A stretch of 64,000 bases of DNA from Betaproteobacteria bacterium RIFCSPLOWO2_12_FULL_62_58 (GTDB taxonomy: Bacteria > Pseudomonadota > Gammaproteobacteria > Burkholderiales > SG8-41), in the NCBI GenBank assembly GCA_001772005.1, contig MERI01000231.1, positions 2,762 through 66,761 on the forward strand, in the 5' to 3' direction. The notes beneath the pieces were generated by a model. It made no database searches and was not told the DNA's origin. It saw only the letters and a program-made list of their open reading frames with translations. A program made the translations under genes and the position numbers. Below are positions 4,640 through 38,369 of this stretch, one piece after another. Positions within the stretch are counted from its first letter, which is position 1. Each line of letters opens with the position of its first letter.

Positions 4640-4667
4640 CGCATTCCTCCTGTGCTCGACGACTGGT

Positions 4668-11481: not shown

Positions 11482-11505
11482 GAAGAAAATGCCTTTCCCG
11501 GTGCT

Positions 11506-14353: not shown

Positions 14354-15070
14354 TCAGTCCCGGGTCTCGGGAAAGAGCTGCTTCAGCCGTTCTTTCTGCG
14401 CGCTCCGGACATGACCTCGCGCGGCCTCTTCAGCTGCGTCCGGGTCGCGCTTCCGTATCGCAGCCAGGAGTTCACCGTGTTCGGCCAGGGCGCCCTTTGC
14501 GCGGTGTGGGAGCAGCATCTGGCTCTTCCCGAGCAGCCACATCGAATCGTTTACCGCGCTCAGGCTCTTTTCGAGGTAGCGGTTGTGCGCGCCGCGGTGC
14601 ACGGCCTCGTGAAAGAGCCGGTTGTGCCGCGCCAGCTCTTCGAAATTGCCCTGCAGGCGCTCCTCGCGCTTCACAAGTTCCTCGAGTTCCATGACCTCAA
14701 GGTCGGAGGCATGGCGCGCGCAGAGGCGCGCTGCCGTACCTTCGAGCACCTCGCGCATCACGTAGAGTTCGAGCATAGCCTGGCGGCTCAAGGAAGCGAC
14801 TACAAGACCGGTTCGCGGCTCCAAGGTGAGCATGCCGTCGCTCTCGAGCCGGCGTAACGCCTCGCGGACCGGTGTACGGCTCACCTTGAGCCATTCCGCG
14901 ACTTCGATTTCCATGATGCGCTGACCTGGCCGCAAAGCACCCTGCTGGATCGCTTCACGCATCTTCTGATACACGAGCTCGCTGAGCGAGGCGTAATGTT
15001 GCTCCTTCTTCGCGGCAGCCGCTGAGACGCGCGCGACAGACTTTCGAAGCAGTGCTGTAGTCGAGCCCAT
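14354..15070 (-). CDS. GntR-family transcriptional regulator (FadR/FCD type)
   Basis: N-terminal wHTH (LRPGQRIMEIEVAEWLKVSRTPVREALRRLESDGML) plus a helical C-terminal FCD-like domain. Confidence 0.85.
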   Translation of the reverse strand: MGSTTALLRKSVARVSAAAAKKEQHYASLSELVYQKMREAIQQGALRPGQRIMEIEVAEWLKVSRTPVREALRRLESDGMLTLEPRTGLVVASLSRQAMLELYVMREVLEGTAARLCARHASDLEVMELEELVKREERLQGNFEELARHNRLFHEAVHRGAHNRYLEKSLSAVNDSMWLLGKSQMLLPHRAKGALAEHGELLAAIRKRDPDAAEEAARGHVRSAQKERLKQLFPETRD

Positions 15071-16789: not shown

Positions 16790-17731
16790 ATGAATACTGA
16801 ATCGAAAGGTGTGCGCCTGCGCAAACTAATCAACCGCAAGGAAAAGGTATTAGTGGTGCTTCACCCGCCCACTGCCGCTCACGGACGCCTCATGGAGCAC
16901 GCGGGTTGCGAGGCGGGATTCGTTGGCACCGGAGGTGTCGTCGGTGCGTACACCGGGCTCGCCGACGTGGGCGCGCTTACCATGATGGAATGCGTGCAGA
17001 TCGCGGGCTGGATTGCGCAAGCGGTGAATTTTCCAATCATAATGGACGGTGACACCGGCCACGGCGGCATCATGGCCGTGCGGCGCATGGTGCGCGAGTG
17101 CATACGTGCGGGCATCGCCGGCGTGCGCATCGATGATCAGCCAATCGAAGGCAAGCGCCGGACCCAGACCGCGGGCATGGAAGTCGTGCCGATCGAGCAG
17201 GCGATCGCGCGCTATCGCGCCGCCGTCGACATGAAAAACGAGCTCGATCCCGGTTTCGTCATCATGGCGCAGTGCTACGCCCGGGATGCAGCGAACGGCG
17301 ATCTCGAGGACACGATCACCCGGCTCAAAGCGTATCGGGAGATTGCCGGCGTGGACTGGGTGCAGCTCGAATCACCGCACTCGGTGGACGAGATCAAACG
17401 CGCACGGGCCGCGGTGCAAGGTCCGTTTTCTTTCATGAAGGGAAAGCTGCCCCGCTACCTCGACCTGGATGGGCACCTCGCGCTTGGCGTCAATATCGCG
17501 TGGTATCCGGGCTTCACGCACCACGTTACATGGGCTGCTCTTTGGGATTTCATGCAGGACTTCCAAGCGCGCGGCATCACAGCGTGGGAGGAGTTCCTCG
17601 CGAGCCGCAAGGACCGTCCTTATCCGGAGCCTACGGTCGGGCCAGAAGGCGAAGGTGCGGACAAGCAGCGCGAGATCGAGGAGCGCTATCGCTCGCCGGG
17701 AGCGCTCAAGAAATTCCGAGATGGGCGATGA
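16790..17731 (+). CDS. Isocitrate lyase / PEP mutase superfamily protein (non-canonical active-site loop)
   Basis: DGDTGHGG and GVRIDDQ motifs. ATG at 16790 (the ORF opens at GTG 16739). The K-[KR]-C-G-H loop is replaced by GKRRTQTAG. Confidence 0.75.
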   Translation: MNTESKGVRLRKLINRKEKVLVVLHPPTAAHGRLMEHAGCEAGFVGTGGVVGAYTGLADVGALTMMECVQIAGWIAQAVNFPIIMDGDTGHGGIMAVRRMVRECIRAGIAGVRIDDQPIEGKRRTQTAGMEVVPIEQAIARYRAAVDMKNELDPGFVIMAQCYARDAANGDLEDTITRLKAYREIAGVDWVQLESPHSVDEIKRARAAVQGPFSFMKGKLPRYLDLDGHLALGVNIAWYPGFTHHVTWAALWDFMQDFQARGITAWEEFLASRKDRPYPEPTVGPEGEGADKQREIEERYRSPGALKKFRDGR

Positions 17732-18304: not shown

Positions 18305-19657
18305 CTAGCCTTTCAGCGCGGTCGCTGTCATCAATTCCCGAATATCGGGCAGGTTGTCTACAGATATGATCATGGCGAGGAGGTGATCAGCCTTGCCGGC
18401 GCTCATCGCGCAGACCGCGCAGCTCAGAAACTTCTCCTGATGCTCACGCTCGGGTATTGGCCACGAGCGGGAGCCTGGGCCCTTGTCCACGCGCATGGAA
18501 AATTCCCCGCGCGGTGTCTTTACGGCGATGTCGGTGTAGCCGACAGTGCCCGAATAGACCGCCGTATCAGCGACGCGGTAGCGTTCGACTTTCTTCATCA
18601 TCGCCCGCGCCGCCGGCCGCTGTACCGCCTTGTCCGTGAAACTTTGCAGATTGAGCCTACCGTCGATTACCAATGCCGCAACCGGATATTGCGCGCTAAA
18701 CTTTCCCTCGAGGCCTGTTTGCGGATCGTTATAGACCAGTGGCTCGTCTGCCCCGGGCGGAAAGCCGATCCGCACGGCTTCGATTTCATCCGGTTTAATT
18801 TGGTGCGCGGCGATTAGCTCGAGCAGGCCGCCCAGCCCCCGGTGACTGCAGTAACAGCACGGCCAGCGCTTGTAATTCATGCCGGGCTGCACAAGATCCC
18901 AGGGGCTGCCGAGACGCTGGACGTATTGCCCTGCGTTCTTCTCCTCCGCGCCGTATAAACGCTGGAAGCTGTCGTTGCCGTCGAAGATCGCCTCGTTTGC
19001 GGTGAAGCCGCGGCGCGCCATGTCCTCGGCCAGGATGGCGCTGCGTGCCGCATGCCCCGACTGGAAGGACTTCGACATCGTGCCGAAGTTGCGGAGGATG
19101 CCGCCGCACTCGGCCGCAGCAATCCCCCAAGCGTTGCGCAAGACCTGCTCGCTATCTCCGCGTAAGTGCGCCGCGACTGCCGTCGCAGCGAAGATGCCAA
19201 CCGTCGCCGTGTTGTGCCAGCCTTTCAGATAATGGCTGTCGCCAAAGATGCGCCCCAGCTTGCCCGCGACTTCTATCCCAATCGCATACGCGAGCAGCAC
19301 TTGCTTACCTGATGCGCCCATCTGTTCACCCACGGCGAGCGCAACGGGTAACGTGCTTGCGCTGGCGTGACCGCGCAAAGTCGAGAGCGTATCGTCGAAG
19401 TCGAGGACGTGCGTAGCGATCGCGTTGGCAAACGCAGCTTCGGCTGGCGCGGTCGAGAAGTTTGCGCCCCAAACGCTTGCGACTGGCCGCGCGCCCATCT
19501 CCGCGACATGCTCGCGCGCGAGCCGCGCGGCCGGTTCAGTGACTCCTGCCAGAGCACATCCAAGAGTATCCATGAGGGCGACCTTGGCCGCTGCCTGCAC
19601 TTCGCCCGGAAGCGCCTTGGTTTCGCAAACGAAGCGCGCCAGCTGCTGCGTCAGCAC
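18305..19657 (-). CDS. MmgE/PrpD family protein (paralog 3)
   Basis: LARFVCETKALPGEVQAAAKVALMDTLGCALAG and a family-wide layout. GTG start. Confidence 0.85.
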   Translation of the reverse strand: MLTQQLARFVCETKALPGEVQAAAKVALMDTLGCALAGVTEPAARLAREHVAEMGARPVASVWGANFSTAPAEAAFANAIATHVLDFDDTLSTLRGHASASTLPVALAVGEQMGASGKQVLLAYAIGIEVAGKLGRIFGDSHYLKGWHNTATVGIFAATAVAAHLRGDSEQVLRNAWGIAAAECGGILRNFGTMSKSFQSGHAARSAILAEDMARRGFTANEAIFDGNDSFQRLYGAEEKNAGQYVQRLGSPWDLVQPGMNYKRWPCCYCSHRGLGGLLELIAAHQIKPDEIEAVRIGFPPGADEPLVYNDPQTGLEGKFSAQYPVAALVIDGRLNLQSFTDKAVQRPAARAMMKKVERYRVADTAVYSGTVGYTDIAVKTPRGEFSMRVDKGPGSRSWPIPEREHQEKFLSCAVCAMSAGKADHLLAMIISVDNLPDIRELMTATALKG

Positions 19658-19681
19658 GATCTGCTCACTGTTGAGACCCGT

Positions 19682-21376
19682 TCAATTCAATCCCACGGCC
19701 ATGGAATTACGCCGAGGGTCATAACCGCCGAGCATATGTCGTGTCAGCGGATCCACCGCCACCCCTTCCACCCCGCCCACGCGGTCACTCCACGCCGGGA
19801 ATTCGAAGACCTCATGCCCCATCGCGGCAAGCGCCTGCCGCGTCGCGCTGCTAACGCGCCGCTCGATCCCCACGCGGCCTCGCAAATCCTCGATCTTGAA
19901 GCGCGGAGCCTCGATCGCGCGTTGGATGTCGAGACCGTAATCAATCATCTGGCTCACAACCTGCACCATGTACTGGACAATGCCGAAACCGCCGGGACTG
20001 CCGAGCGTTGCGTGGGGAACACCGCTTTCCGCGAGTATCGTCGGCGCATGGCCGATGTTCGCACGATGGAAGGGCGCCACCTGGTTGGCGCCAGCCGCAA
20101 GCGACATCCACCAAGTGCGGTCGTTCACAAGGAGTCCGGTTCCCTCCACCATGTCGGCGCAACCAAATCGCGACCCTATGGTCTGCGTGGCGCTCACCAT
20201 GTTGCCCTGGGCGTCCGCCACGACGAAATGCGTCGTGGCGGAGGCCGATGATTCCTTCTCACCGCGCGGCGTGGCGCCGCGAGCGTCGATGCTCAGGCGC
20301 AATACGTCCGCGTAACCTTTGTCCGCGAGCCGCGCGACATCCATGTCGAGAAAATCCGGATCACCGCCTGCACTGCGCCGGTCAGCGAGGGCGAGTTTCA
20401 GTGCCTCGATGGTTAAGTGGAGTGCCTGCTCGCCGTGATACGGCATCTCACGCAAGGCGTACCCTTCCAGGATGTTGAGCGCCTGTATGACGTACGCCCC
20501 TGCCGTAGGCGGCGCTGTCACGATGACGTCGTTGCCCCGGTACGTACCGCGTACCACGTCCCGCCATACACAGCGATACCGGCGCAGATCCTCCCGCGTG
20601 ATCACGCCGCCATGCCGCTCGCTATGCCTGACGATGCGCGCGGCCGTTTCGCCGTCATAGAAGGCGTCACGACCGCCGCGCGCGAGGCGGCGCAGCGTCT
20701 CGGCAAGCTCCGGCTGCCTCAGCCGCTCGCCTTCCCCGAGCACGGCCCGGTCGTCCTTGAAGAAAACGCGTCGCGTAGCGGCACAAGGAGCAAGCTTGGT
20801 GCGGTACGCCTGCAGCGCAGCAGCCAGATATCGATTGACGAGAAAACCTGTTGCGGCGATCTCGATGGCAGGATCGAGCAGCTCCTCAAAGCGCAGGCGC
20901 CCGTAACGCTGTGCAAGCTCGACCCACGCGGCAGGCGTGCCGGGCACCATCGCGGTGATCATGCCGAGGTGGCGCTGTTCCGGCGGCTCCTCTTGAAACA
21001 CACGGGAATCGGCAAGGACGTCGAGCCCGAAGTGTTGCGCAATGCGCTGCGGCGAGATGGCAGCCGGACACGTGGAATACCCATCGAGGTAGGCGTACTG
21101 GCGGCTTTCAGCGTGGTAGAGGAGCCATGCGGAGTCACCCGCCGGTGCCGCCCAATCCGGGCTCAGCACGGATATCGCGGCGCCGAGGGCAACTGCAGCG
21201 TCGATTGCGTTGCCGCCCCGGCGAAGCACGTCGGCGCCGACCTGCGAAGCGACCGGGTGCATTGAAGACGCCATGCCGCGTGTGCCCCAGATCTGCACCG
21301 GGGGACGGCCATCGCATTCGGTGAGCCACGCGGCATCGATGACCGCTTGCGTTTTTTCCGTTGCGGCTGCAGTCAT
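19682..21376 (-). CDS. Gamma-glutamyltransferase-family (Ntn hydrolase) protein, no signal peptide
   Basis: MASSMHPVASQVGADVLRRGGNAIDAAVA, and the autoprocessing/nucleophile region SASATTHFVVADAQGNMVSATQT. ATG at 21376; the ORF extension to 21511 overlaps the CobW gene. Confidence 0.8.
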   Translation of the reverse strand: MTAAATEKTQAVIDAAWLTECDGRPPVQIWGTRGMASSMHPVASQVGADVLRRGGNAIDAAVALGAAISVLSPDWAAPAGDSAWLLYHAESRQYAYLDGYSTCPAAISPQRIAQHFGLDVLADSRVFQEEPPEQRHLGMITAMVPGTPAAWVELAQRYGRLRFEELLDPAIEIAATGFLVNRYLAAALQAYRTKLAPCAATRRVFFKDDRAVLGEGERLRQPELAETLRRLARGGRDAFYDGETAARIVRHSERHGGVITREDLRRYRCVWRDVVRGTYRGNDVIVTAPPTAGAYVIQALNILEGYALREMPYHGEQALHLTIEALKLALADRRSAGGDPDFLDMDVARLADKGYADVLRLSIDARGATPRGEKESSASATTHFVVADAQGNMVSATQTIGSRFGCADMVEGTGLLVNDRTWWMSLAAGANQVAPFHRANIGHAPTILAESGVPHATLGSPGGFGIVQYMVQVVSQMIDYGLDIQRAIEAPRFKIEDLRGRVGIERRVSSATRQALAAMGHEVFEFPAWSDRVGGVEGVAVDPLTRHMLGGYDPRRNSMAVGLN

Positions 21377-21395
21377 GGCATCTGCGGCAACATGG

Positions 21396-22469
21396 CTACA
21401 AGAAGTGCTTCGCCGCTTCGAGGAAGCGCGCGTACGCTGCAGGGTCGATCTGCAAGGCGTCGCCAAGCGAGTCCGGCATGGCGAAAGCGGCGAACGTTTT
21501 TTCGAGCGCATTACGCTCGAGACCGCGGACGATGAAGACGATACGTGTGCGTTCGTCCGACGTCGGCCACCGTTCCAGTGGTACGGGCTCGTGGATCACC
21601 GTCTGCACCGCGTGGATGATGTAGGGATCGCCCGCAACGTTTACGATGCCTTTGACGCGCAGCAGTTGCGGGCCCTTGAAGCTCGCCAGCATGCTGAGCC
21701 AGGTGGCAAGCCCCGCGATACTGACCAGCCCGTCGTGGATGAGGGTGAATGTCCGGATGTCGCCCGCATGCAGCGTATGTATGTTTCCGCCACCCGCCAT
21801 GGGAGTCTTGGGCGTATCGAGCCCGAGCCAGCGTTCGAGGTCTGCTTCCCGCGTGCGTCCATCCCCCGCGCCGCGACCGAACAACAGCTCCGGATCGATC
21901 TCGCCATGCAGGACCGGAATGAGCTCCGCGCCCGGATTGATCTTCTTCACGGCCGCTTCGACCTCCAGCCGCGCATCCGGCACTGCCAGATCAGTCTTGC
22001 TGAGCAGCAGCACATCGGATACGGCTATCTGCTTGCGCACTTCGTCCTGCGTCGCGAGTTGCCTAAGCGCATGCACGACATCGACTACGCCGACCACCGT
22101 ATCGAGCCGATAGAGCCGGCTCAAGTCGGTGTCGGTTACAATGGTCTGCACTATGGGGACCGGATCCGCGAGGCCCGTCGTCTCGATAAGTATGTGGTCG
22201 AAGGCGGGAATCTCGCCGCTTGCTCTCTTCCGCGACACGTCGGTCAACGTGTCTACCAGATCGCCTTTCACCTCGCAGCACAGGCAGCCGTTGGAAAGAA
22301 GCCGCACGTTCTCGGCGGGCGTGGACACCAGCAGATGGTCAATGCCGACTTCGCCGAACTCGTTGATGATCACCAGGCTGTTCTTGAGTGAGGCGTGCTG
22401 CAACAGATGATTGAGCACGGTCGTCTTGCCACTGCCGAGAAAGCCGGTGATGATCGAAACGGGCAGCAT
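21396..22469 (-). CDS. CobW/COG0523-family G3E GTPase (putative metallochaperone)
   Basis: P-loop GFLGSGKTT and the metal-binding motif GCLCCEV. C-terminal CobW_C-like domain. Confidence 0.85.
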   Translation of the reverse strand: MLPVSIITGFLGSGKTTVLNHLLQHASLKNSLVIINEFGEVGIDHLLVSTPAENVRLLSNGCLCCEVKGDLVDTLTDVSRKRASGEIPAFDHILIETTGLADPVPIVQTIVTDTDLSRLYRLDTVVGVVDVVHALRQLATQDEVRKQIAVSDVLLLSKTDLAVPDARLEVEAAVKKINPGAELIPVLHGEIDPELLFGRGAGDGRTREADLERWLGLDTPKTPMAGGGNIHTLHAGDIRTFTLIHDGLVSIAGLATWLSMLASFKGPQLLRVKGIVNVAGDPYIIHAVQTVIHEPVPLERWPTSDERTRIVFIVRGLERNALEKTFAAFAMPDSLGDALQIDPAAYARFLEAAKHFL

Positions 22470-22477
22470 AAGCGACC

Positions 22478-23689
22478 TTATCCTTTTAGCAGCTGCCGTG
22501 CAATGAGCGAGCGCTGGATTTCGTTAGTGCCGCCGCCGATCTGGTAATGGCGCAGATAGCGGTAAAACTGCGTGAGCGGCAACTCACTCGATTCGCCCAT
22601 CGCGCCGTGGATCTGGATCGCGTGATCGAGACAGCGGGTGCCCCACTCAGCGGCGACCATTTTCACCAGCGCCGCTTGTGCTCTCACGTCTTCACCGCCG
22701 TCGGCGCGCGCAGCCATCTCGTACGTCAATGCGCGCAACGCCATGATATCGACGTGCATATCGACGAGCTTCCACTGTATCGCCTGGCGCTCCGAGATCG
22801 GTCGTCCGAACGTCACGCGCTCCTTGGCCCATTTGATCGACATGTCGAGCGCCCGCTGCATCTTGCCGAGCGAATACGGACCGCGCAACAGGCGATCGTG
22901 TATCGTCAGCCACTTCTGACCGAGTCTGAACCCGTTTCCCACTTCGCCAAGCACGTCCTCGGCTCCCACCTTGCAGTCGTCGAAGCGGATGATGTATTGC
23001 GCGGCTTTCTGGCTGAGCCACGTCGGGATGCCAGGTTCCTCGATTTTCACCCCCGGGCTGTTGCGCTGGACGACGAACATCGTAATGCCGCCGCGCTGGC
23101 GCTTCTCAGCGTCGGTCACCGCCTGCAGCAGGATGATGTCCGATTCGGCCGCGCCGGAGATCCACATCTTGGTGCCATTAATCACCCATTGCGAGCCGTT
23201 CCACACCGCACTCGTCTTCATCATGCCACCGGGATCGGAACCGGCATTGGGCTCTGTCTGCGCGAAGCAATGGATCATCTTGCCTTCGATCACCGGCTTC
23301 AGAAAGCGCTCGGCCTGCGCGCCTCGGCACTCGTACAGGATGTTGGGCACGTTCACCCACGGGAAAGGCACCGCGGTGTACATGAATTCCTCGATGATCG
23401 CGATCTGAGCGAGGAGCGAGAGCCCCATGCCCCCGTGCGCCTCGGGCACCATGACATACCACAAGCCGGTGTCGCGGGCGATTTTCTCCAGCCGGCGCAC
23501 GACGTCGGGCGGAAAGACGGCCCGCAGATTGGTTATCGGCTGCAGGCCGTAGGCCTGCTCGGGCGATTTGAGGTAAGCCTGCTCAAGCGGCAGCAGTTCT
23601 TCATGCACGATCTTGCGCGCTACTTTGCGGAACTCCTTCACTTCCGCAGGCAGTTGATACAACGGCTCGCTCACAGCGGATGCATGCAT
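22478..23689 (-). CDS. Acyl-CoA dehydrogenase family protein
   Basis: About 403 aa from ATG 23689. FAQTEPNAGSDPGGM and the C-terminal IYEGTNEIQ-like GGTNEIQRSLIA motif. Confidence 0.85.
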   Translation of the reverse strand: MHASAVSEPLYQLPAEVKEFRKVARKIVHEELLPLEQAYLKSPEQAYGLQPITNLRAVFPPDVVRRLEKIARDTGLWYVMVPEAHGGMGLSLLAQIAIIEEFMYTAVPFPWVNVPNILYECRGAQAERFLKPVIEGKMIHCFAQTEPNAGSDPGGMMKTSAVWNGSQWVINGTKMWISGAAESDIILLQAVTDAEKRQRGGITMFVVQRNSPGVKIEEPGIPTWLSQKAAQYIIRFDDCKVGAEDVLGEVGNGFRLGQKWLTIHDRLLRGPYSLGKMQRALDMSIKWAKERVTFGRPISERQAIQWKLVDMHVDIMALRALTYEMAARADGGEDVRAQAALVKMVAAEWGTRCLDHAIQIHGAMGESSELPLTQFYRYLRHYQIGGGTNEIQRSLIARQLLKG

Positions 23690-23733
23690 GGGGTGGCTAT
23701 CCTTTATCGTCTTTTTTTCGTCGTTATGGCGCT

Positions 23734-24738
23734 TCAGGCGGTGGCGGCAGCGCGGGCCCGTTCCCGCAGCGTCTTCAGGTTCCCGCCGCGCATCACCGAG
23801 CCGGGCAGCGGATGGCCCACGATGTCCTCCGCGAGTTGCGCGGCCGCAATTAACACATCGAGATTGACGCCGGTCTCTATGCCCATTTCCTCGCACATGA
23901 ACACGAGATCTTCGGTGCAGACGTTGCCGGCAGCACCCTTGTGTGCCGCAAACGGACACCCGCCGAGCCCCGCGACAGACGCGTCGAGTATGTCCACGCC
24001 CATCTCCAGCCCGGCATACACGTTCGCGATGCCCATCCCGCGTGTGTCGTGAAGATGCAAAGCTAGACGTAGGGCTGGGAATTTCTCACGCATTGCACCG
24101 ACCATGCGCTTGACCGACTGTGGCGTCGCCCATGCCATCGTATCGGCGAGACTGAAGACTTTGATCTCAAGCGCATATTCCGCCGCAAGATCGAGCACCT
24201 GCTGCGTCAGATCCAGGACTTTCTGCCGGGAAATGTCGCCTTCAAAATTGCAGCCGAAAGCCGCCATGATGGAGCCGCGCTCCACCGGCACGCGATGCTC
24301 CTTGTACATTTCGATGATACGGCGTTGCGCTTCGATGTTCTCCTGCAGCGTGCGGTTCTGGTTACGCTTGAGGAAGGCCTCGGACGCGGTGAGCGCAATT
24401 GATCCCTTGACATCGAGTTTTCCGGCCGCGAGCGCCCGCTGCAGACCTTTCTCGTTGAGCCACAGCGCCGTGTAGCGCACACCGGACTGTCTGGTGAAGC
24501 CCTTCACCACTTCATCGGCGTCCGCCATGCCCGGCACGTTCTTCGGGGGCACGAACGAACAGACCTGGATTTGCGCGAGCCCGGTGCGCGAAAGCGCGTC
24601 CACCAGCTCGACTTTGCGCCGGGTCTCGATGGGCCCCTTCTCGAACTGAAAGCCTTCGCGCGGGCCCTCTTCGTTGATTTGCACTCGTTTCGGCAGATCA
24701 GGCACGACAACACTCCTTGGCTTATCGCCGTAGTTCAC
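23734..24738 (-). CDS. Hydroxymethylglutaryl-CoA lyase-like (HMGL family) acyl-CoA lyase
   Basis: VQINEEGPREGFQ, HLHDTRGMGIANV and GLGGCPFA motifs. GTG start abutting the upstream stop. Confidence 0.8.
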   Translation of the reverse strand: MNYGDKPRSVVVPDLPKRVQINEEGPREGFQFEKGPIETRRKVELVDALSRTGLAQIQVCSFVPPKNVPGMADADEVVKGFTRQSGVRYTALWLNEKGLQRALAAGKLDVKGSIALTASEAFLKRNQNRTLQENIEAQRRIIEMYKEHRVPVERGSIMAAFGCNFEGDISRQKVLDLTQQVLDLAAEYALEIKVFSLADTMAWATPQSVKRMVGAMREKFPALRLALHLHDTRGMGIANVYAGLEMGVDILDASVAGLGGCPFAAHKGAAGNVCTEDLVFMCEEMGIETGVNLDVLIAAAQLAEDIVGHPLPGSVMRGGNLKTLRERARAAATA

Positions 24739-25203
24739 TCATTGCGTGGGCGGCACAAAGGGATACGGCACAGGCTCGCCGTCACGATAGGGCAGCGCGA
24801 TCACCGCCGTGCCGGGGGTCGATTCCTTCTCCTGCTCGTTAAGAATGCCGAGCTCGACCTCCACGAGCCCATATGATTTCCACTCCCGTTTCGCGGCGAC
24901 GCGGCCCCACACCCTGAGCGTCTCGTTCTCCAGATTCATGGCGCGAAACTGGAAGCTCACCTTCCATACCCATCCGTCGTCGCCAGCCCACTCGCGGAGC
25001 AGCTGCATGACGAACTGCTGCTTCAATGTGCCGTTCACAAGAATGCCGGGAAGCTTGTCATGCTCCATCGCAAACGGTTTGTCGTAATGGATCTTGTGCC
25101 AATTCTCCATCGCCGCGGACCAGCGCATGAGATGCGCACTGGTGAGAGGCCCTTTCGGGAGCGGTCCCAGCATATCTCCCACGTTCACGGACTCGTAACG
25201 CAT
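24739..25203 (-). CDS. MaoC-like (hot-dog) dehydratase, C-terminal-type subunit
   Basis: 154 aa from ATG 25203. HYDKPFAMEHDKLPGILVNG resembles the MaoC hydratase motif region. Confidence 0.7.
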   Translation of the reverse strand: MRYESVNVGDMLGPLPKGPLTSAHLMRWSAAMENWHKIHYDKPFAMEHDKLPGILVNGTLKQQFVMQLLREWAGDDGWVWKVSFQFRAMNLENETLRVWGRVAAKREWKSYGLVEVELGILNEQEKESTPGTAVIALPYRDGEPVPYPFVPPTQ

Positions 25204-25207
25204 CACC

Positions 25208-25735
25208 TCATCTCCGGATCTGGTGTTTCTGCACGCGCAGCAGCAAGTCACCGTTGCCGGCCCGATACTCGGTCTCGATCACTACGAGCAGCATTGGTCC
25301 TTTGCTGCTGTGCTTTTCGGTGATGCTCGCGTACCGCGATTTGGCGGTCACGCTTTCCCCCTGGCGCGCGTAACGGAACACCTCGACTTCCGTACCGGCA
25401 TTCAAAAAGCCGATGCCCTTGGGCAGCGGCAACGGCGGCAGGCCCTGTGCAGTAGAGCCGACGATGCCGTCGAAGTCAAGATTGCGGGCGTGCTCCTCGA
25501 ATGGGTCACGCGTGCCGAACGGCCGCCGAAACATGTTCATCGGGAACAGGGCCGGCGAAACAGGCCCGCCGTAGCGCGAATCGCCGCGCTGCTCTTCGGC
25601 ATAAAAGATCGAGGCGTCGTCCATGTACGCCTGAACATAACGTCGCACTGCGCCGCGCTCCACCACATCGCAAGCGGTCTCGTTGTCGCTTTCCGCGCCG
25701 ATCAGGCGTTCGATTTCCGGCGTCATCAAACCCAC
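25208..25735 (-). CDS. MaoC_dehydrat_N-type hot-dog protein (N-terminal-type subunit)
   Basis: 175 aa with a RYVQAYMDD.. / PPLF-type layout typical of N-terminal MaoC/FAS1-like dehydratase halves. 4 nt upstream of the C-type subunit. Confidence 0.6.
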   Translation of the reverse strand: MGLMTPEIERLIGAESDNETACDVVERGAVRRYVQAYMDDASIFYAEEQRGDSRYGGPVSPALFPMNMFRRPFGTRDPFEEHARNLDFDGIVGSTAQGLPPLPLPKGIGFLNAGTEVEVFRYARQGESVTAKSRYASITEKHSSKGPMLLVVIETEYRAGNGDLLLRVQKHQIRR

Positions 25736-25756
25736 CTCAGTCCTCCTTTCTGTGCT

Positions 25757-26968
25757 TTAACCTAGCGCGACAACGCCTTCTCTCACAAGGCGCTGCAGCT
25801 CTGGGTCGGTGTAGCCAAGCGACTTCATGATTTCCTTCGAGTGTTCTCCAAGGCGGGGCGGTCCCGTCCGCACGCCGCCCGCGGCATCCGAGAACTTGAT
25901 CGGCACGCCCGCCATGCGGATTTTGTCGGAGCCGCTGCTCCCCACTTCTACGATCATGTCCCGGGCCTGTACCTGTTCTTCCTGTACCACCTGGTCGATG
26001 GGCAGCACCGGCGTGCACGGGATGCCGAGCGGGCCAAGGCGTGCACGCCACGCTGCGACGGACTCGCGCGCAAAGATCTCAGTGAGCGCAGCGATGATGG
26101 TCTCCCGGTTCACCATGCGTCGTTGGGGGCTATTGAAACGCGCATCATCGCCCCACTCCGGCATGCCGAGCGCGCTGCACAGGTCACGCCACATGCGATC
26201 GGTAAACACCGCGACAACCATCCAGCCGTCGCTCGCCTTGAACGCCTGGTATGGAACGAGTCCCTGCGCCGATGACCCCTTGCGCTCGGGCGCCTTGCCG
26301 CTCGCGAAATACGCGGTGCAGTGATAGGAGAGCATCGCGATCTGACCTTCGAGCAACGACGTATCGACGCGCTGACCCTTGCCGGTGACGTTGCGCATCT
26401 GCAGCGCCAGCAGCACGCCGGTCGTCGCGAACATGCCGGCCCCAATGTCCGCCACCGAAATGCCCATTTTCACTGGGCCCCGGCCGGCTTCGCCGGTAAT
26501 GCTCATGCCGCCCGCGTAGGCCTGCATCGCTACGTCGTTCGCGCGCTCGTCCTTCAAAGGTCCGGTCGCACCATAACCCGTGATGCTGCAATAGATGAGT
26601 CGCGGATTCTTTCGATGCAACATCTCGTATCCGAGTTCCGCGCGCTCCAGCGCACCGGGCCGGAAGTTATCGATCAGGACGTCGGCATCGAGCACCAATC
26701 GCTCGACTACGGCCCTTCCCTCTTTGTTCTTCAGATCGACGGCAAGGCTTTTCTTGTTCCGATTAACGGCTGCGAAGTAATGCGACATGCGCCCCTCGAA
26801 AAATGGCGCCCAGTTGCGGCTTTCGTCGCCCTGGTCGGTGCGTTCGACCTTGATCACGTCCGCGCCATAGTCAGCGAGCATCATCCCGCAGTACGGTCCG
26901 GCCATAGCGACGCCGATTTCAATCACCTTCAGTCCCTGCAGCGGCGCCGGCAACTGCGTTCCTACCAT
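25757..26968 (-). CDS. Family III CoA-transferase (CaiB/BaiF)
   Basis: LQGLKVIEIGVAMAGPYCGMMLADYGADVIKVE near the N-terminus. About 400 aa. Confidence 0.85.
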   Translation of the reverse strand: MVGTQLPAPLQGLKVIEIGVAMAGPYCGMMLADYGADVIKVERTDQGDESRNWAPFFEGRMSHYFAAVNRNKKSLAVDLKNKEGRAVVERLVLDADVLIDNFRPGALERAELGYEMLHRKNPRLIYCSITGYGATGPLKDERANDVAMQAYAGGMSITGEAGRGPVKMGISVADIGAGMFATTGVLLALQMRNVTGKGQRVDTSLLEGQIAMLSYHCTAYFASGKAPERKGSSAQGLVPYQAFKASDGWMVVAVFTDRMWRDLCSALGMPEWGDDARFNSPQRRMVNRETIIAALTEIFARESVAAWRARLGPLGIPCTPVLPIDQVVQEEQVQARDMIVEVGSSGSDKIRMAGVPIKFSDAAGGVRTGPPRLGEHSKEIMKSLGYTDPELQRLVREGVVALG

Positions 26969-27738
26969 GCGGTCGTTCCTCCATCCACGGACAGTATCGT
27001 GCCAGTAACAAAGTTGGATGCATCTGACGCAAGATAAACAGCGGCGCCCTTCAAATCATCTTCCCCGCCTGGGCGGGCCAGCGGTATCTCGCCGAGGATG
27101 TGCTCTTTGCGCTCTTCGTACCGTCCCCGGTTTCGGCTGGCAAGGAAAAAGCCGGGTGCGATTGCATTTACCAGGATGTTGTGATGCGCCCACTTCACAG
27201 CGAGGTCGCGCGTCATGTTGACCACGGCACCCTTTGTGGTGTTGTAAGCGATGGAATTGTGCACGGATGGGTCCTTGCCGCGCAGCCCCGACACTGAGGC
27301 AATATTGATGATCTTGCCGCGCTTCCGTCTGATCATTTCCCGGCCGAAGATTTGCGAACAAAGGAAGGTGCCCGTCACGTTGAGATCGATCACGTATTGC
27401 CAGCGATCGAGCGGCATCTCCTCGGGTGCGGCGAACCAGGCACGCCCCGCGTTGTTGATGAGCACGTCGACGCGACCAAAGCGAGCCATCACCTCATCCT
27501 TGAGGTGTTCTACTTCGTTCAACTGGGAAACGTCGCAGCCCGCCGCAAGCACCTCGACGCCGATCGCGCGGAGCCCCTCTGCGGCTTGCTCGCAACGCTC
27601 GGCGTTGCGGGCGCAGATGACGATATGAGAGCCCGCCTCCGCGAGGCCCCGTGCCATCTGCAGACCCAACCCGGCCGAACCGCCGGTGATAACGCTCACC
27701 CGTCCTGTGAGGTCGAAGAGTTCCCGTATCGTCGCCAT
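26962..27738 (-). CDS. Short-chain dehydrogenase/reductase (SDR)
   Basis: TGGSAGLG, NNAG and the catalytic YNTTK. Confidence 0.85.
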   Translation of the reverse strand: MATIRELFDLTGRVSVITGGSAGLGLQMARGLAEAGSHIVICARNAERCEQAAEGLRAIGVEVLAAGCDVSQLNEVEHLKDEVMARFGRVDVLINNAGRAWFAAPEEMPLDRWQYVIDLNVTGTFLCSQIFGREMIRRKRGKIINIASVSGLRGKDPSVHNSIAYNTTKGAVVNMTRDLAVKWAHHNILVNAIAPGFFLASRNRGRYEERKEHILGEIPLARPGGEDDLKGAAVYLASDASNFVTGTILSVDGGTTAW

Positions 27739-27739
27739 C

Positions 27740-29101
27740 TCACGCGTTGTCGATGATTTTCCACGAGCCAGGCTCGAACTGGATCACGCGCCGTGGCGTG
27801 GCAGAGAGTTTGTCCACCCACGGCTCACCCTCCTTCATCACCATCTTCATGTTCTCCTTGTCGCACAGCACGGCAATGTCCTTCGAGGGATCGCCGTCCA
27901 CCGCCAGGATATCGGCCAGCTTGCCGTTCTCCAGCGTGCCTAGGTCCTTGCCCAGCCACAGCGCCTCGGCCGCGTTCCTGGTCGCCGTCTGGATAGCCTC
28001 CATGGGTGCCATGCCCAAATTGACGTAAAGCTCCAGTTCCCGGGCGTTGGTGCCGATCTCCGGTTCCGGTCCCAGGTCGGTGCCCATCGCGATTTTGATA
28101 CCCGCCTGATGCATTACCTTGAAAGTCTCGAAAGTATAGGGCTGAATCTTCTTCATCTTGTCGAGAATGTTTCGTTGCGTGCCAATCTTCGCGCGCACCT
28201 CGATCGCGTGATCGGTGCGGTGCGAAAGCGTGGGCGTCACCGGAATACCGGAGTCCTTGATCATGGCGATCGACTCCTTGTCGTGAAACACCATATGCTC
28301 GATCGTGTCTACCTTTGCCCGAACGCACATCTTGTGCGATTCGGCGGTAAAGCAGTGCGCAGCAGTCGGCTTATGGAACGCGTGTCCTTCATCGACAATC
28401 GCCTCCAGTTCCTCAAGCGTCATATTGCGAACATCGGGTTCCTCGTCCGCAGTTCCGCCACCCCCCGAAACGCTGGTCTTCAATAGGTCCGCGCCGGCCC
28501 GAAGATGCTCGCGCGCAAGCGACCGTAACGCCCACGGACCGTCAGCGGTAAACGAAAGATCAAAGTTGCGCGCAGCAGCACGCGGCAGCGTCAAATCCAA
28601 ATGGGACCCCGTAATGATGGGACGACCGCAAACATGCAACCTCGGCCCCACATGAATACCCGCATTGATTGCATCGCGTACCGCACACGCCTCGAACACA
28701 AAGGGCCCGCGCGAAGTCGCACGGCCCAAATCGCGCAGTGTCGTGAACCCCATCTCTAAGCACATCTGGGCATGAAACAGCATGTAGAGCATCTGCAGCT
28801 GCGGGGTCACCTCCCAGATCGAGACCCGGTAGTTGGCAAATGACGCGCAGTTGAACGCCGCCAGATGCAGGTGGCAATCGATCAGCCCAGGCATAAGGGT
28901 GTATTTGCCGGCGTCGATCACTTGCGCCCCCTCCGGCTCCTTGACCTCCCCCTTCTTGCCAATCGCCTTGATGCGCTTGCCTTCCACAACAATCACCGGG
29001 TCCTTGGTCACCGCCCCCCCGTTGCCGTCAATCAGCCAGCCACCTCGTATGACACGAACCTTCGCCTGCGTCGCCGCAACCCCGCCCGTCGCTGCTTCCA
29101 T
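27740..29101 (-). CDS. Amidohydrolase-superfamily metallohydrolase (COG1228-like), copy 1
   Basis: The GLIDCHLHL metal motif, and a C-terminal ..GKLADILAVDGDP.. composite-domain motif. Confidence 0.8.
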   Translation of the reverse strand: MEAATGGVAATQAKVRVIRGGWLIDGNGGAVTKDPVIVVEGKRIKAIGKKGEVKEPEGAQVIDAGKYTLMPGLIDCHLHLAAFNCASFANYRVSIWEVTPQLQMLYMLFHAQMCLEMGFTTLRDLGRATSRGPFVFEACAVRDAINAGIHVGPRLHVCGRPIITGSHLDLTLPRAAARNFDLSFTADGPWALRSLAREHLRAGADLLKTSVSGGGGTADEEPDVRNMTLEELEAIVDEGHAFHKPTAAHCFTAESHKMCVRAKVDTIEHMVFHDKESIAMIKDSGIPVTPTLSHRTDHAIEVRAKIGTQRNILDKMKKIQPYTFETFKVMHQAGIKIAMGTDLGPEPEIGTNARELELYVNLGMAPMEAIQTATRNAAEALWLGKDLGTLENGKLADILAVDGDPSKDIAVLCDKENMKMVMKEGEPWVDKLSATPRRVIQFEPGSWKIIDNA

Positions 29102-29183: not shown

Positions 29184-29236
29184 CATTTGCATACATTAAT
29201 AGTCACATTATGACTATCATTTCGCCGTTGCAAATG
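29184..29236. promoter_or_regulatory. Nested inverted repeats between the amidohydrolase operon and the IclR gene (candidate IclR operator)
   Basis: Outer arms CATTTGCA (29184..29191) and TGCAAATG (29229..29236). Inner arms ATAGTCA-cat ta-TGACTAT (29199..29217). Confidence 0.4.
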
Positions 29237-29457
29237 CGAATCCACAGTGACAATATACGCCCTGACAGTCATTGACAAGCTGATTACTCATATAGTGGAT
29301 ATCTCGTGGCGCGCAGCGACGTCAGGAGACGAAAGAAAAAACAGGCACGCAAAGCATCGATCGCACGATTGCGCTGCTCACGGAACTCGCCCTGCACGGC
29401 GCAAACGGCGCACGCGTTTCCGAACTTGCGTCCGCGCTCCGACTCGAATACCCGACC

Positions 29458-30120
29458 GTGCACCGCATGATCCGCTGCCTGGTTTCGCACCGCATGGTGG
29501 AGCGGAACGAAGCGACGCCGCGCTACTCGCTGGGCCCGCTGGTCTACGAGCTGGGTCTTAGCGTCCCGGCTAAGATGAACCTTCGCGAGATCTACGACGC
29601 GGTCACGACGAAGATCGCAGAGAGCACGGGCGACACCGTGTTCCTGAACGTGCGCAGCGGTCTCGACGTGTTGTGCATCGACCGCAAGGAAGGCACCTAC
29701 CCGATCAAGACACTCATCTTCGAGGTCGGCAATCGCCGCCCCTTGGGCGTCGGCGCAAGCGGTATCGCGCTGCTCATGCCGCTGCCCAATGACGAACTCG
29801 AATCAGTAGTACGCGCTAACTCGACGCGTCTGCAGGCGTACGGAAGCGTCAAACCAAAGAGCGTACTTGCGCTGGTAAGACAGTCGAGGGAGAGAGGTTA
29901 CGTCGTCACCGAGGACATTGTCGTGCGCGGTGTAAGCGCCATCAGCCTGCCGTTCGGCGGGGGCAAACGTGTGCCGCACGCGGCGATCAGCGTCGCTTGC
30001 GTGCCCTCCCGCATGCCGCAGGCACGCCACCGAGAACTAGTTGCCCTTTTGAAGTCCGAGATTAGGAACCTGGAGGAGATCTTTCGTTCCGCAAGCCTGA
30101 TAATCAGAAGAGTGGCATAA
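29458..30120 (+). CDS. IclR-family regulator; the ORF as it stands lacks most of the wHTH (see frameshift finding)
   Basis: Effector domain collinear with 61041..61943. The HTH-coding sequence continues in frame upstream (29296..29457) without any start codon. Confidence 0.7.
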   Translation: MHRMIRCLVSHRMVERNEATPRYSLGPLVYELGLSVPAKMNLREIYDAVTTKIAESTGDTVFLNVRSGLDVLCIDRKEGTYPIKTLIFEVGNRRPLGVGASGIALLMPLPNDELESVVRANSTRLQAYGSVKPKSVLALVRQSRERGYVVTEDIVVRGVSAISLPFGGGKRVPHAAISVACVPSRMPQARHRELVALLKSEIRNLEEIFRSASLIIRRVA

Positions 30121-30198: not shown

Positions 30199-31179
30199 AT
30201 GAGAAAATTTCACTACTTAGGGCTTTGGGCTGTTGTGCTGACCACGGGTATCTGCGTGTCCGAAATCACGCATGCTCAGAGCTATCCGTCGAAAAATATT
30301 CGCCTTACCATACCATTCCCTCCTGGAGGGGCGAGCGACATTCTTGCTCGCGCGGTTGCGGATCGCCTAACCGATTCCCTGAAGCAGCGCGTTATCGTCG
30401 ACAACCGCCCTGGCGGAGGCGGTTTGATCGCCATTGACCTGGTCGCGCACGCACCAGCAGATGGCTATTCACTTCTGCAAATTGCAGCGAGTTTTGTGAT
30501 AAACCCCAGCCTCTACAAGAAACTTCCTTATAACGCGCAAACTGATTTCAGTGCAATAAGCATACTGGCGATCGCGGACAATATTCTCGTTGCCCATCCA
30601 TCGCTGCCAACCAGGTCAGTCCGGGACCTGATTGCGCTCGCGAAAAAACGCCCTGGCCAGCTCAATTACGGGCACTCCGGATACGGAACACAGTCGTTCC
30701 TTGCAGCCGAGCTTTTCAAGCAGATGGCTGAGGTGGATGTGGTGCCTATTCCGTATAAAGGTGCCCCGGCTGCGCTGCTCGACGTGATCGCCGGACAGAT
30801 TCAGATCATATTTGCGGGTGCCCCGCCCGCGTTATCTCATGTCCGGAGTGGCAAATTGAGACCCCTCGCCGTCGGTGGGAAGAACCGTCTTCCCCAGCTG
30901 CCGGGAGTGCCTACCCTTGCCGAAACTCTGCCAGGGTTCGAAGCCAGTGTTTGGTACGGTTTTCTGGCGCCGGCAGGCACTCCTCAAGAAATAGTTGTGC
31001 GCCTGAACGCCGAGGTCAACAAAATTCTGCAGCTCCCCGCAACAAAAGAATTCCTTATGGCAAACGGCTTTCGCATTGCTAGCCCAATGACACCTGAAGC
31101 GTTTTCCGCTTACATGATTTCCGAGGGTGAAAAATGGGCGCAAGTCCTGAAGCAATCGGGGGTCAGCGCCACAAACTAG
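30199..31179 (+). CDS. Bug-family substrate-binding protein
   Basis: AAGGAG SD, signal peptide, then YPSKNIRLTIPFPPGGASD. Confidence 0.85.
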   Translation: MRKFHYLGLWAVVLTTGICVSEITHAQSYPSKNIRLTIPFPPGGASDILARAVADRLTDSLKQRVIVDNRPGGGGLIAIDLVAHAPADGYSLLQIAASFVINPSLYKKLPYNAQTDFSAISILAIADNILVAHPSLPTRSVRDLIALAKKRPGQLNYGHSGYGTQSFLAAELFKQMAEVDVVPIPYKGAPAALLDVIAGQIQIIFAGAPPALSHVRSGKLRPLAVGGKNRLPQLPGVPTLAETLPGFEASVWYGFLAPAGTPQEIVVRLNAEVNKILQLPATKEFLMANGFRIASPMTPEAFSAYMISEGEKWAQVLKQSGVSATN

Positions 31180-31224
31180 CCAGCCTGTCGCAGAGATCCG
31201 CCCTATGCTCTAAGGACTTATGTC

Positions 31225-32937: not shown

Positions 32938-32956
32938 CGCGATGCCGTAACCGCTT

Positions 32957-33589: not shown

Positions 33590-33601
33590 GAAAGAACTGG
33601 C

Positions 33602-35008: not shown

Positions 35009-35077
35009 CATAATATGTTTGATTAATATACAGTCGATACAATTTATCATATTGTGGATATTTACGGGAGCTCAAGA

Positions 35078-38320: not shown

Positions 38321-38369
38321 CGGCGGGCCCGACGGCACCGGGGCCCACGGTAAGCCGCGCACCGCGATC

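Follow-up and report, generated by a model that had tools for sequence, protein, structure and literature searches.

A probable ten-gene catabolic operon joining putative amide hydrolases to a CoA-dependent carboxylic acid module

Introduction

The described system closest to the one reported here is the itaconate–methylsuccinate cluster of Pseudomonas aeruginosa (PA0878–PA0883) and Cupriavidus necator. Its members are Ict, Ich, Ccl, Mcd and Msi, the acyl-CoA dehydrogenase (ACAD) being the methylsuccinyl-C4-CoA dehydrogenase Mcd and the PrpD-family protein the methylsuccinate isomerase Msi (Gonner et al., 2025; PMC12290011). We analysed a 64,000-nucleotide stretch of contig MERI01000231.1 from Betaproteobacteria bacterium RIFCSPLOWO2_12_FULL_62_58, referred to below as the window, in which ten co-directional genes on the minus strand (18305–29101; Table 1) follow the same logic. 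They combine the five superfamily roles of that cluster (PrpD isomerase, family III CoA-transferase, ACAD, MaoC-type hydratase and lyase) with an amidohydrolase, a CobW GTPase, an SDR-family oxidoreductase and a hydrolase of the gamma-glutamyltransferase (GGT) fold. The set is probably one catabolic operon, conserved as a unit and controlled by an IclR-type regulator. We consider the chances about even that it couples an amide-hydrolysing, epimerising front end to the CoA-dependent cleavage of a beta-branched di- or tricarboxylic acid.

An original prediction, made from the letters of the window alone, held that the set mirrors PA0878–PA0883. This stands for composition and pathway logic; orthology is not supported. 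The lyase is of the HMGL (DRE-TIM) type and not of the HpcH/CitE type, the hydratase is encoded by two genes instead of one fused double hot-dog gene, the ACAD has an aspartate base placed as in isovaleryl-CoA dehydrogenase (IVD), the PrpD protein resembles iminodisuccinate (IDS) epimerase, and the amidohydrolase, CobW, GGT-like and SDR proteins are additional. No HpcH/CitE-type (S)-citramalyl-CoA lyase (Ccl) was found in the 15.7–37 kb region of the window, where the PF00682 lyase is the only one; the HMGL assignment of the original prediction holds. The lower leucine and acyclic-terpene pathway and human succinate-hydroxymethylglutarate CoA-transferase (SUGCT) offer the same lyase family, the same ACAD base placement and the nearest CoA-transferase relative. 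In contrast to that pathway, the operon lacks a biotin carboxylase, its hydratase is MaoC-type and not a crotonase, entry would be by CoA transfer and PrpD proteins are partners. Because the HpcH/CitE lyase, the carboxylase and the crotonase are all missing, the operon belongs neither to the itaconate cluster nor to the leucine pathway. The HMGL-type lyase of an autotrophic cycle is a precedent for the cleavage of a C5 branched dicarboxylyl-CoA beside a family III CoA-transferase, but that system, unlike the operon, has no ACAD, hydratase pair, PrpD or hydrolases.

Materials and methods

Gene calls for the window were taken from the record of metagenome contig ENA ERZ27254836 k141_2932801 and cross-checked with Pfam and NCBIfam; parts of the window occur as identical copies in further metagenome samples. 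A genome scan was carried out with the HMG-CoA-lyase-like protein (HMG, 3-hydroxy-3-methylglutaryl), the best 80 of more than 510 loci were kept (lyases 67–76% identical) and all window proteins were compared with these 80 loci by tblastn. Contexts of the GGT-like gene were drawn from a protein search and exact-sequence look-ups; a metagenome scan with the same protein gave four loci. Loci outside the window are designated by L numbers. The GGT-like protein was aligned to Escherichia coli GGT (PDB entry 2E0W), and promoter-like and terminator-like sites were located by a consensus scan.

Results and discussion

Operon organization

Gene calls, Pfam and NCBIfam bore out the predicted coordinates, strand, gene order, family assignments and spacing. 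The count of eleven genes was one too many: ten are called, and ten are also named in the list that accompanied that count. From the amidohydrolase to the PrpD gene the nine junctions measure +1, −7, +30, +4, +33, +44, +8, +19 and +24 nucleotides, with GGAG-like sequences before most of them. The SDR gene is predicted to be translationally coupled to its neighbours, given the 1-nucleotide gap to the amidohydrolase gene and the 7-nucleotide overlap with the CoA-transferase gene. Promoter-like sites on the minus strand were found solely upstream of the amidohydrolase gene (29278–29207). Within 18305–29101 the consensus scan gave no promoter-like or terminator-like site on that strand that might split the set into separate units, as the original prediction had allowed for. 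With the tight junctions, this is compatible with a single transcript for the ten genes and lends it slight weight.

Motifs expected for catalysis are kept throughout (the amidohydrolase metal ligands, Walker A and CxCC of CobW, the threonines and Gly-Gly of the GGT-like protein, the Arg, His-x-His and Cys of the lyase and Asp265 of the ACAD), and the enzymes look catalytically competent.

Conservation across loci

Several uncultured bacteria of soil and water share the operon. Its ten families recur jointly on at least five other metagenome contigs in several gene orders, with protein identities of 47–88%: they are co-linear on the independent contigs L096, L095, L097 and L089/L092 and form differently ordered clusters on L098 and L099. 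L096 has the ten genes in identical order with a divergent IclR gene; there identity is 88% for the amidohydrolase and 70–88% for the remaining nine proteins (GGT-like 70%, lyase 84%, ACAD 88%). L095 and L089/L092 (GGT-like 53–54%) hold the full set with CobW shifted behind PrpD. On L097 (GGT-like 64%) the set is followed, in a single array, by two more PrpD genes (groups C and B, defined below), a 2-hydroxyacid dehydrogenase gene, E1 alpha and beta genes and three TctC genes. In L098 and L099 (GGT-like 51%) a (CobW-)GGT unit runs convergent to a series in the order amidohydrolase, CoA-transferase, hydratase, lyase, PrpD, flavin reductase, SDR, PrpD, ACAD and IclR. Because the linkage survives this reshuffling, the hydrolase and CoA genes appear to be functionally coupled. 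The prediction of one coupled pathway is thereby upheld, since rearrangements in at least five other lineages have not separated the genes.

Single families behave similarly. Amidohydrolase orthologues are 81% identical in L095, 59% in L094 and 51% in L101; SDR orthologues (L092, L095–L099) are 67–83% identical, hydratase subunit A 46–77% and subunit B 63–81%. CobW adjoins or lies near the GGT-like gene in L089, L093, L095, L096, L097, L099 and L101, and an orthologue of the PrpD protein of the operon (PrpD3) is encoded directly 3′ of that gene in L089, L094, L095, L096 and L097.

Among the best 80 of more than 510 lyase loci, hydratase subunit B was present in 17 (at least 60% identity), the ACAD in ten (at least 65%) and a CoA-transferase in six (at least 55%), and a PrpD-family gene lay directly 3′ of the lyase gene in half of them (40). 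No orthologue of the amidohydrolase, CobW, the GGT-like protein or PrpD3 was found in these 80 loci, and to judge from the same comparison the window-type operon seems absent from the species representatives among them. The operon thus has two layers. One is a widespread core of hydratase, HMGL-type lyase, a PrpD other than PrpD3, ACAD and a variable CoA-transferase, which many Beta- and Alphaproteobacteria carry without a hydrolase. The other is a rarer hydrolase unit of amidohydrolase, CobW and GGT-like protein, usually with a group A PrpD, which stands beside other downstream modules elsewhere; the hydrolases, described in the original prediction as appended to the pathway, are a unit of their own. 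In L093 (GGT-like 61%) and L094 (74%) the GGT-like gene, with CobW, amidohydrolase or PrpD, lies beside an ABC transporter, a PEP-mutase-family protein (PEP, phosphoenolpyruvate) and an amidase. In L101 (GGT-like 35%) the adjacent amidohydrolase and CobW (37%) genes are accompanied by cupin, TauD, 2-hydroxyacid dehydrogenase and TctABC genes.

A cultured isolate, Variovorax sp. SRS16, carries the core on plasmid 3 (L102; NZ_LR594668.1, 241090–260031) in the order thiamine pyrophosphate (TPP) enzyme, HMG-CoA lyase (69%), group B PrpD (47%), ACAD (69%) and an 865-aa fused double CoA-transferase; both hydratase genes lie on the other strand, and a hydantoinase B/oxoprolinase-family gene is nearby. 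The core part of the pathway is therefore directly testable. Close relatives of the GGT-like protein were absent from the plasmid collection searched, where the top match was 37.6% identical.

Some peculiarities of individual loci were also noted. The CobW gene of L096 (8270–9336) is called as two pieces of 245 and 99 aa, which suggests a frameshift or an assembly error. In L093 (11951–13299) transposase genes directly follow the CobW–GGT pair, and the locus may be truncated by insertion. L100 (ENA ERZ28763718 ctg72333, 1–11788) carries five tandem GGT-like paralogues of 590–612 aa around a TPP enzyme and a citrate/sulfate-type symporter; one of them, P0101, is 42% identical to the GGT-like protein of the window and has the same remodelled pocket.

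Amidohydrolase, CobW and the GGT-like hydrolase

The best PDB match of the amidohydrolase was the L-Arg carboxypeptidase Cc2672 (3MTW, E = 3.6e-56). It resembles the Cc2672/Sgx9260-type amidohydrolases and ochratoxinase in fold and metal-ligand motifs (E = 1e-56 to 1e-30), and all of these motifs could be read from its sequence (CHLH76, residues 76–79; LLK208; AAH249; IEH269; GTD342); their assignment to the amidohydrolase strands follows known structures of the superfamily. The CobW protein has the GTPase and CxCC motifs of COG0523 metallochaperones, namely Walker A GFLGSGKT at residue 9, CLCC at 62 and the NKxD-like SKTD at 157, together with a CobW_C domain.

The GGT-like protein shares with canonical GGT (E. 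coli, 2E0W) the fold, the autoprocessing and nucleophilic threonine (T381 for T391), the equivalent of T409 (T399) and the oxyanion pair G462-G463 (for G483-G484), but differs from it in the donor pocket. The E. coli residues that we take to bind the alpha-carboxylate and alpha-amino groups of the gamma-glutamyl moiety are all replaced (R114 by Y100, N411 by G401, Q430 by R420, D433 by W423, S462 by I441 and S463 by G442), so that none of six is kept. Essentially all of the 120 relatives, which reach down to 36% identity, show the same replacements, whereas the catalytic threonine and Gly-Gly are retained and the T409 position is Thr or Ser. Since all six binding residues are lost, the gamma-glutamyl-linked precursor put forward in the original prediction is unlikely. 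The same prediction was right to call the protein signal-peptide-less: read directly, its N-terminus (MTAAATEKTQAVIDAAWLTECDGRPP…) has no hydrophobic segment. Also in contrast to canonical GGT, it is predicted to be cytoplasmic, and its gene is linked to those of a COG0523 GTPase and an amidohydrolase. With 381 bits the protein nonetheless exceeds the NCBIfam cut-off for GGT (358 bits), and automatic annotation would therefore over-call it as a GGT. The protein search gave about 98 orthologue-like sequences of 47–96% identity.

The closest relatives with structures were true GGTs and cephalosporin acylase (2NLZ). An assignment as an HpxW-type oxamate amidohydrolase was rejected because E. coli GGT scored 253 bits and the 5HFT chains no more than 83 and 27. 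The 5HFT chains are labelled ‘Gamma-glutamyltranspeptidase’; the entry is equated here with HpxW.

PrpD proteins

The best PDB match of PrpD3 was the IDS epimerase of Agrobacterium tumefaciens BY6 (2HP0/2HP3; 2HP3, E = 3.5e-106), with 42% identity over about 400 residues by BLASTP. PrpD3 keeps the equivalents of all seven residues (H85, D88, H99, Y145, H150, K198 and K266) proposed for the two-base epimerase mechanism (PMC12290011), as do four of its orthologues encoded 3′ of the GGT-like gene. Its context differs from that of the epimerase: a C–N lyase partner was not seen, and the gene is always preceded by that of the GGT-like hydrolase.

Tyr145, the second base, is shared beyond the IDS-epimerase type only with methylsuccinate isomerase, and the residue at this position separates three groups. 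Group A, encoded 3′ of the GGT-like gene, retains Tyr145; group B adjoins the lyase gene, as in the core-only loci, and mostly has His; group C adjoins a flavin reductase gene and has Gln, Asn or Thr, with further changes at 85 and 88. In tblastn against the methylsuccinate isomerase and dehydrogenase genes (PA0881, PA0879 and C. necator) as given in the PMC12290011 supplement, a text with many dropped bases, PrpD3 and the ACAD gave no match. Lyase-adjacent PrpD proteins matched these dropped-base sequences in fragments of 27–36% identity only.

The label ‘PrpD paralog 3’ given to the protein in the original prediction is apt, the window holding eight full-length PrpD genes and two fragments. 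Their pairwise identities, mostly 24–35%, mark them as old paralogues. With about a dozen TctC-type receptor genes beside the PrpD genes, orphan genes for di- and tricarboxylates are densely clustered in the window.

CoA-transferase, hydratase, lyase and ACAD

The CoA-transferase was best matched in the PDB by human SUGCT (9BR6, E = 5.5e-82). Its top NCBIfam matches were the succinate-glutarate and succinyl-CoA:mesaconate CoA-transferases, both below cut-off. For hydratase subunit B the nearest structure was itaconyl-CoA hydratase 8KHG, a weak match (E = 3.3e-4, 24 bits over 42 residues).

The lyase matched NCBIfam PRK05692 (HMG-CoA lyase) with 300 bits against a cut-off of 246 and human HMG-CoA lyase (2CW6) with E = 2.9e-64; it is 52% identical to an HMG-CoA lyase encoded beside an acyl-CoA carboxylase on plasmid pSMR1-4. 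R16 (in PREG), H217-L-H219 and C250 (in GLGGC250P) occupy the positions of R41, H233, H235 and C266 of the human enzyme, which we take to be catalytic. PREG has Glu at the position of human D42, presumably a metal-ligand Asp, and the same holds for 87 of 87 relatives. Because the carboxylase-linked enzyme of pSMR1-4 shares the Glu, PREG marks a subfamily and not a loss of function; as a signature specific to the present clade it was discarded.

On alignment, the ACAD has Gly385 at what we take from known structures to be the position of the catalytic Glu in medium- and short-chain acyl-CoA dehydrogenases (MCAD/SCAD), and Asp265 at that of the IVD Glu. Both features are kept in 17 of 17 orthologues; Asp instead of Glu at the IVD base position is unusual. 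An IVD-type base placement goes with beta-branched substrates, and SUGCT and HMG-CoA lyase, the nearest characterised relatives of the CoA-transferase and the lyase, act on branched dicarboxylyl-CoAs; both points speak for the pathway proposed below.

Proposed pathway and alternatives

What was observed is which genes are present, how their linkage is conserved and the state of the active sites; from this we infer the reactions, their order and the substrate as follows. A carboxylate with one or two amide-type bonds would enter by way of TctC-type receptors. These bonds would be split by the metal-dependent amidohydrolase, with CobW as its likely metal-insertion helper, and by the cytoplasmic GGT-fold N-terminal nucleophile (Ntn) hydrolase. 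PrpD3 would invert C2 of the resulting 2-substituted succinate-type acid so that the stereoselective CoA-transferase could use both isomers; methylsuccinate isomerase likewise serves the itaconate CoA-transferase (PMC12290011). Once the acid had been activated by the family III CoA-transferase, the IVD-type ACAD would introduce a 2,3-double bond beside the branch, the two-subunit MaoC-type hydratase would form a tertiary 3-hydroxyacyl-CoA and the HMG-CoA-lyase-like enzyme would release acetyl-CoA and an oxoacid. A 2-alkylsuccinate would give pyruvate or another 2-oxoacid, a 3-alkylglutarate acetoacetate or another 3-oxoacid, and a tricarballylate-type acid oxaloacetate. The oxoacid would be disposed of by the nearby TPP and E1 enzymes, and the 2-oxoacid product named in the original prediction is compatible with the TPP enzyme and E1 dehydrogenase genes that adjoin the system.

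Several points weigh against this pathway. That hydrolysis comes first is an assumption, and the SDR, the flavin reductase, the cupin and PrpD groups B and C stand outside the proposed steps. The evidence on the acid is split: the PrpD proteins (binders of 1,4-dicarboxylates), the weakly Ich-like hydratase and the TPP and E1 enzymes favour a 2-substituted succinate, while the SUGCT-like transferase, the 52% identity of the lyase to the carboxylase-linked HMG-CoA lyase and the IVD-like ACAD favour a 3-substituted glutarate. All sources of the orthologue-like GGT sequences are metagenomes or metagenome-assembled genomes. In L093 and L094, which hold close relatives of the GGT-like protein, no CoA core occurs within the DNA seen. 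Finally, CobW is associated no less closely with the GGT-like gene than with the amidohydrolase gene (in L093 it stands without an amidohydrolase gene in view), and its client is therefore uncertain; we know of no metal requirement for GGT-fold enzymes.

A tricarballylate-type acid would be a 2-alkylsuccinate and a 3-alkylglutarate at once. TcuA-type, methylisocitrate-lyase-family and aconitase-family genes in the window are consistent with such a substrate. The flavoprotein encoded just downstream of the operon scores above the NCBIfam cut-off for the tricarballylate dehydrogenase TcuA (576 against 369 bits), and the methylisocitrate-lyase/PEP-mutase-family gene lies convergent beside it.

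The operon might instead degrade an amide-bearing imino- or amino-polycarboxylate (opine-like, an iminodisuccinate- or ethylenediaminedisuccinate (EDDS)-like chelator or of the N-acyl-aspartate type). The CoA module would then handle one released skeleton, PrpD3 would epimerise an N-substituted succinate centre and the amidohydrolase and GGT-like protein would strip amide-linked groups. This is unlikely, though a good deal fits it: PrpD3 is far nearer to IDS epimerase than to other characterised PrpD proteins and keeps all catalytic residues, the alpha-ammonium ligands of the GGT-like protein have become Gly, Arg and Trp, as expected for a bulkier or anionic substituent, and the clade of the amidohydrolase splits C-terminal amino acids off N-acyl compounds. 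The window also contains a paralogous module that joins a second amidohydrolase to an ornithine-cyclodeaminase/mu-crystallin-family enzyme and two PrpD proteins, and a metallochaperone would make sense beside a metal-chelating substrate. However, the operon and its relatives showed neither a C–N lyase nor an opine oxidase or dehydrogenase, the genes of the CoA module are the most conserved of the set, and no sequence feature is tied directly to this class of compounds. Chloroflexus has an HMGL-family (R)-citramalyl-CoA lyase, which counts towards a third, non-orthologous itaconate, mesaconate or methylsuccinate (C5) cluster acting on the free acid, with the amidohydrolase, CobW and the GGT-like protein as passengers. 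The composition matches Ict–Ich–Ccl–Mcd–Msi (PMC12290011), 8KHG is the structure nearest to subunit B, the core occurs without hydrolases in at least 17 genome loci, and PrpD stands beside the lyase in 40 of the best 80 of more than 510. We consider this rather improbable all the same: unlike passengers, the three proteins and PrpD3 have remained beside the CoA genes in three or more gene orders, PrpD3 is IDS-epimerase-like (42%), the lyase is not HpcH/CitE-type and the 8KHG match amounts to 24 bits.

Modularity could be carried further, to a mosaic of independent units (amidohydrolase–SDR, CoA core and CobW–GGT–PrpD) lying side by side with substrates of their own. The core does occur without hydrolases and the hydrolase unit with other modules, and the window is an island rich in PrpD and TctC paralogues. 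We nevertheless judge a mosaic very unlikely, since the junctions are tight or overlapping with no internal promoter-like or terminator-like site on the minus strand, and since the full set is found on at least five contigs with 47–88% identity, shuffled orders included. Still a shade less probable is that the GGT-like protein is not an amidase but cleaves C–C or other bonds of a pathway oxoacid in the manner of LmbA. LmbA-type GGT homologues of 4-alkylproline biosynthesis are reported to perform Ntn-dependent C–C cleavage (PMC5519988); moreover, the canonical donor pocket is fully remodelled and oxoacid-handling enzymes are encoded nearby. Against this, the protein has no specific LmbA-type similarity, its best relatives being true GGTs and cephalosporin acylase, and the constant presence of a second amide hydrolase, joined in L093/L094 by an amidase-signature enzyme, fits nitrogenous substrates.

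A bolder version of the coupled front end, and one that we think has little chance of being right, is that the amidohydrolase, CobW, the GGT-like protein and the group A PrpD form a dedicated and so far undescribed front end that serves amide-bearing polycarboxylates of natural origin. Its substrates might be opine-like or iminodisuccinate/EDDS-like chelators, N-substituted Asn or Gln derivatives, and citrate or tricarballylate amides. The COG0523 GTPase would keep the metalloenzyme loaded despite a chelating substrate, and the released acid might run, for example, from tricarballylyl-CoA through aconityl-CoA and citryl-CoA to acetyl-CoA and oxaloacetate. The GGT-fold enzyme would then represent a new substrate class for T03 Ntn hydrolases.

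Chemistry of this class is expected of Burkholderiales-type carboxylate islands. What is notable is the HMGL-type branched-dicarboxylate module, the conserved cytoplasmic GGT-fold subfamily lacking the gamma-glutamyl pocket, the conserved triad of amidohydrolase, CobW and GGT-like protein, and the relatives of IDS epimerase. If the coupled pathway proposed above is correct, it would be a non-orthologous, modular catabolism of branched dicarboxylates with an HMG-CoA-lyase-type and not a citrate-lyase-type cleavage enzyme. Annotated gamma-glutamyltransferases would include a conserved cytoplasmic subfamily unable to bind the gamma-glutamyl group, and the relatives of IDS epimerase, an enzyme so far known only from the breakdown of one synthetic chelator, would gain a natural genomic context. 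It would further suggest that soil and groundwater contain an abundant nitrogen-containing organic acid that has gone unrecognised. Full-text literature searches with combinations of the families returned no description of this gene set or of a CoA-dependent tricarballylate route.

Regulation and neighbouring genes

Two sigma-70-like promoter matches, assigned by consensus only, precede the operon (Table 1), and a perfect inverted repeat overlaps one of them. A related repeat, ATGGTCATATTATGACTAA, lies in the spacer between the IclR and amidohydrolase genes of L096, and the repeat of the window is a candidate IclR operator. The divergent IclR-type regulator is 77% identical over 261 aa to its counterpart in L096. 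This match runs in a single frame, by which a frameshift in the gene was dismissed. The part encoding the helix–turn–helix (HTH) region has no ATG, GTG or TTG between the in-frame stop at 29293–29295 and the GTG at 29458, and the product of the gene caller is a 217-aa protein without the HTH. This might reflect a non-canonical start, a defect at the 5′ end or an error in the sequence.

The system is not confined to the coordinates of the original prediction (18305–29101) but appears, by synteny with L097–L099, to extend to units at 30199–36004 and 42216–47263. The divergent unit is probably part of the system of the operon, to judge by its flavin reductase and group C PrpD genes, whose orthologues lie within the CoA operon of L098 and L099. 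Counterparts of the third unit follow the ten-gene set of L097 in one co-directional array.

Table 1
Positions of genes and sites in the 64,000-nucleotide window
Feature	Position	Strand	Remarks
Operon
Amidohydrolase superfamily, Cc2672/Xaa-Pro-dipeptidase/ochratoxinase clade	27740–29101	minus	453 aa; Pfam Amidohydro_1
SDR-family oxidoreductase	26962–27738	minus	258 aa; Pfam adh_short
Family III CoA-transferase	25757–26968	minus	403 aa; Pfam CoA_transf_3, 433 bits
Hydratase subunit A, hot-dog fold, FAS1_DH_region/MaoC N-type	25208–25726	minus	172 aa; Pfam PF13452
Hydratase subunit B, MaoC-like hot-dog fold	24739–25203	minus	154 aa; Pfam MaoC weak, below cut-off
HMG-CoA-lyase-like DRE-TIM lyase	23734–24705	minus	323 aa; Pfam HMGL-like (PF00682)
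ACAD	22478–23689	minus	403 aa; four ACAD Pfam domains
CobW/COG0523 G3E GTPase, putative metallochaperone	21396–22469	minus	357 aa; Pfam cobW and CobW_C
GGT-like, GGT-fold Ntn hydrolase	19682–21376	minus	564 aa; Pfam G_glu_transpept, 403 bits
PrpD3, MmgE/PrpD family, group A, IDS-epimerase-like	18305–19657	minus	450 aa
Regulatory region
Sigma-70-like promoter match	29278–29250	minus	Consensus only
Sigma-70-like promoter match	29234–29207	minus	Consensus only
Inverted repeat ATAGTCA-N5-TGACTAT	29199–29217	minus	Perfect; overlaps one promoter-like site
IclR-type regulator	~29326–30120	plus	Divergent; Pfam IclR_C
Divergent unit
TctC receptor	30199–31179	plus	
TPP enzyme	31225–32937	plus	
Flavin reductase	32966–33589	plus	Orthologues 56–60% in CoA operon of L098, L099
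PrpD, group C	33602–35008	plus	Orthologues 54–55% in CoA operon of L098, L099
Cupin	35078–36004	plus	
Third unit
E1 alpha	46250–47263	minus	82% to L097 array
E1 beta	~45258–46253	minus	82% to L097 array
PrpD, group B	43891–45312	minus	70% to L097 array
TctC	42216–43217	minus	61% to L097 array
Further PrpD genes
PrpD, full length	1684–3168		
PrpD, full length	3251–4831		
PrpD, full length	38370–39725		
PrpD fragment	37549–38373		
PrpD fragment	41689–42192		
Downstream genes
Methylisocitrate-lyase/PEP-mutase family	16790–17731		Convergent
TcuA-type flavoprotein	15089–16600		Just downstream of operon
GntR/FCD regulator	14354–15070		
Aconitase-family large-subunit-like	13053–14333		
PGA_cap (CapA-like) protein	10372–11481		Between TctC genes
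Flavoprotein of second pair	8622–10208		
Aconitase-like protein of second pair	6306–7583		
Paralogous module	51003–60716	minus	
BKACE	59616–60716	minus	
PrpD, group-A-like	57094–58674	minus	50–53% to GGT-following PrpD proteins
Second amidohydrolase	54553–55887	minus	73% to operon amidohydrolase
Ornithine-cyclodeaminase/mu-crystallin family	53510–54493	minus	
PrpD, group-C-like	52074–53513	minus	

Beyond the TcuA-type gene lie a GntR/FCD regulator gene and an aconitase-family large-subunit-like gene, and a second flavoprotein/aconitase-like pair was found further along. TctC genes flank the gene of a PGA_cap (CapA-like) protein, which stands apart from any obvious poly-gamma-glutamate genes and has no evident link to the GGT-like gene. 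The paralogous module, which has no GGT-like gene or CobW, consists of BKACE, a TctC gene, the group-A-like PrpD, another TctC gene, the second amidohydrolase, the ornithine-cyclodeaminase/mu-crystallin-family gene, the group-C-like PrpD and a further TctC gene. The G+C content, about 0.60–0.65, drops to 0.52–0.59 beyond approximately 47 kb (47000–64000), where the PrpD, TctC and amidohydrolase families continue; this part of the window may be a separately acquired segment.

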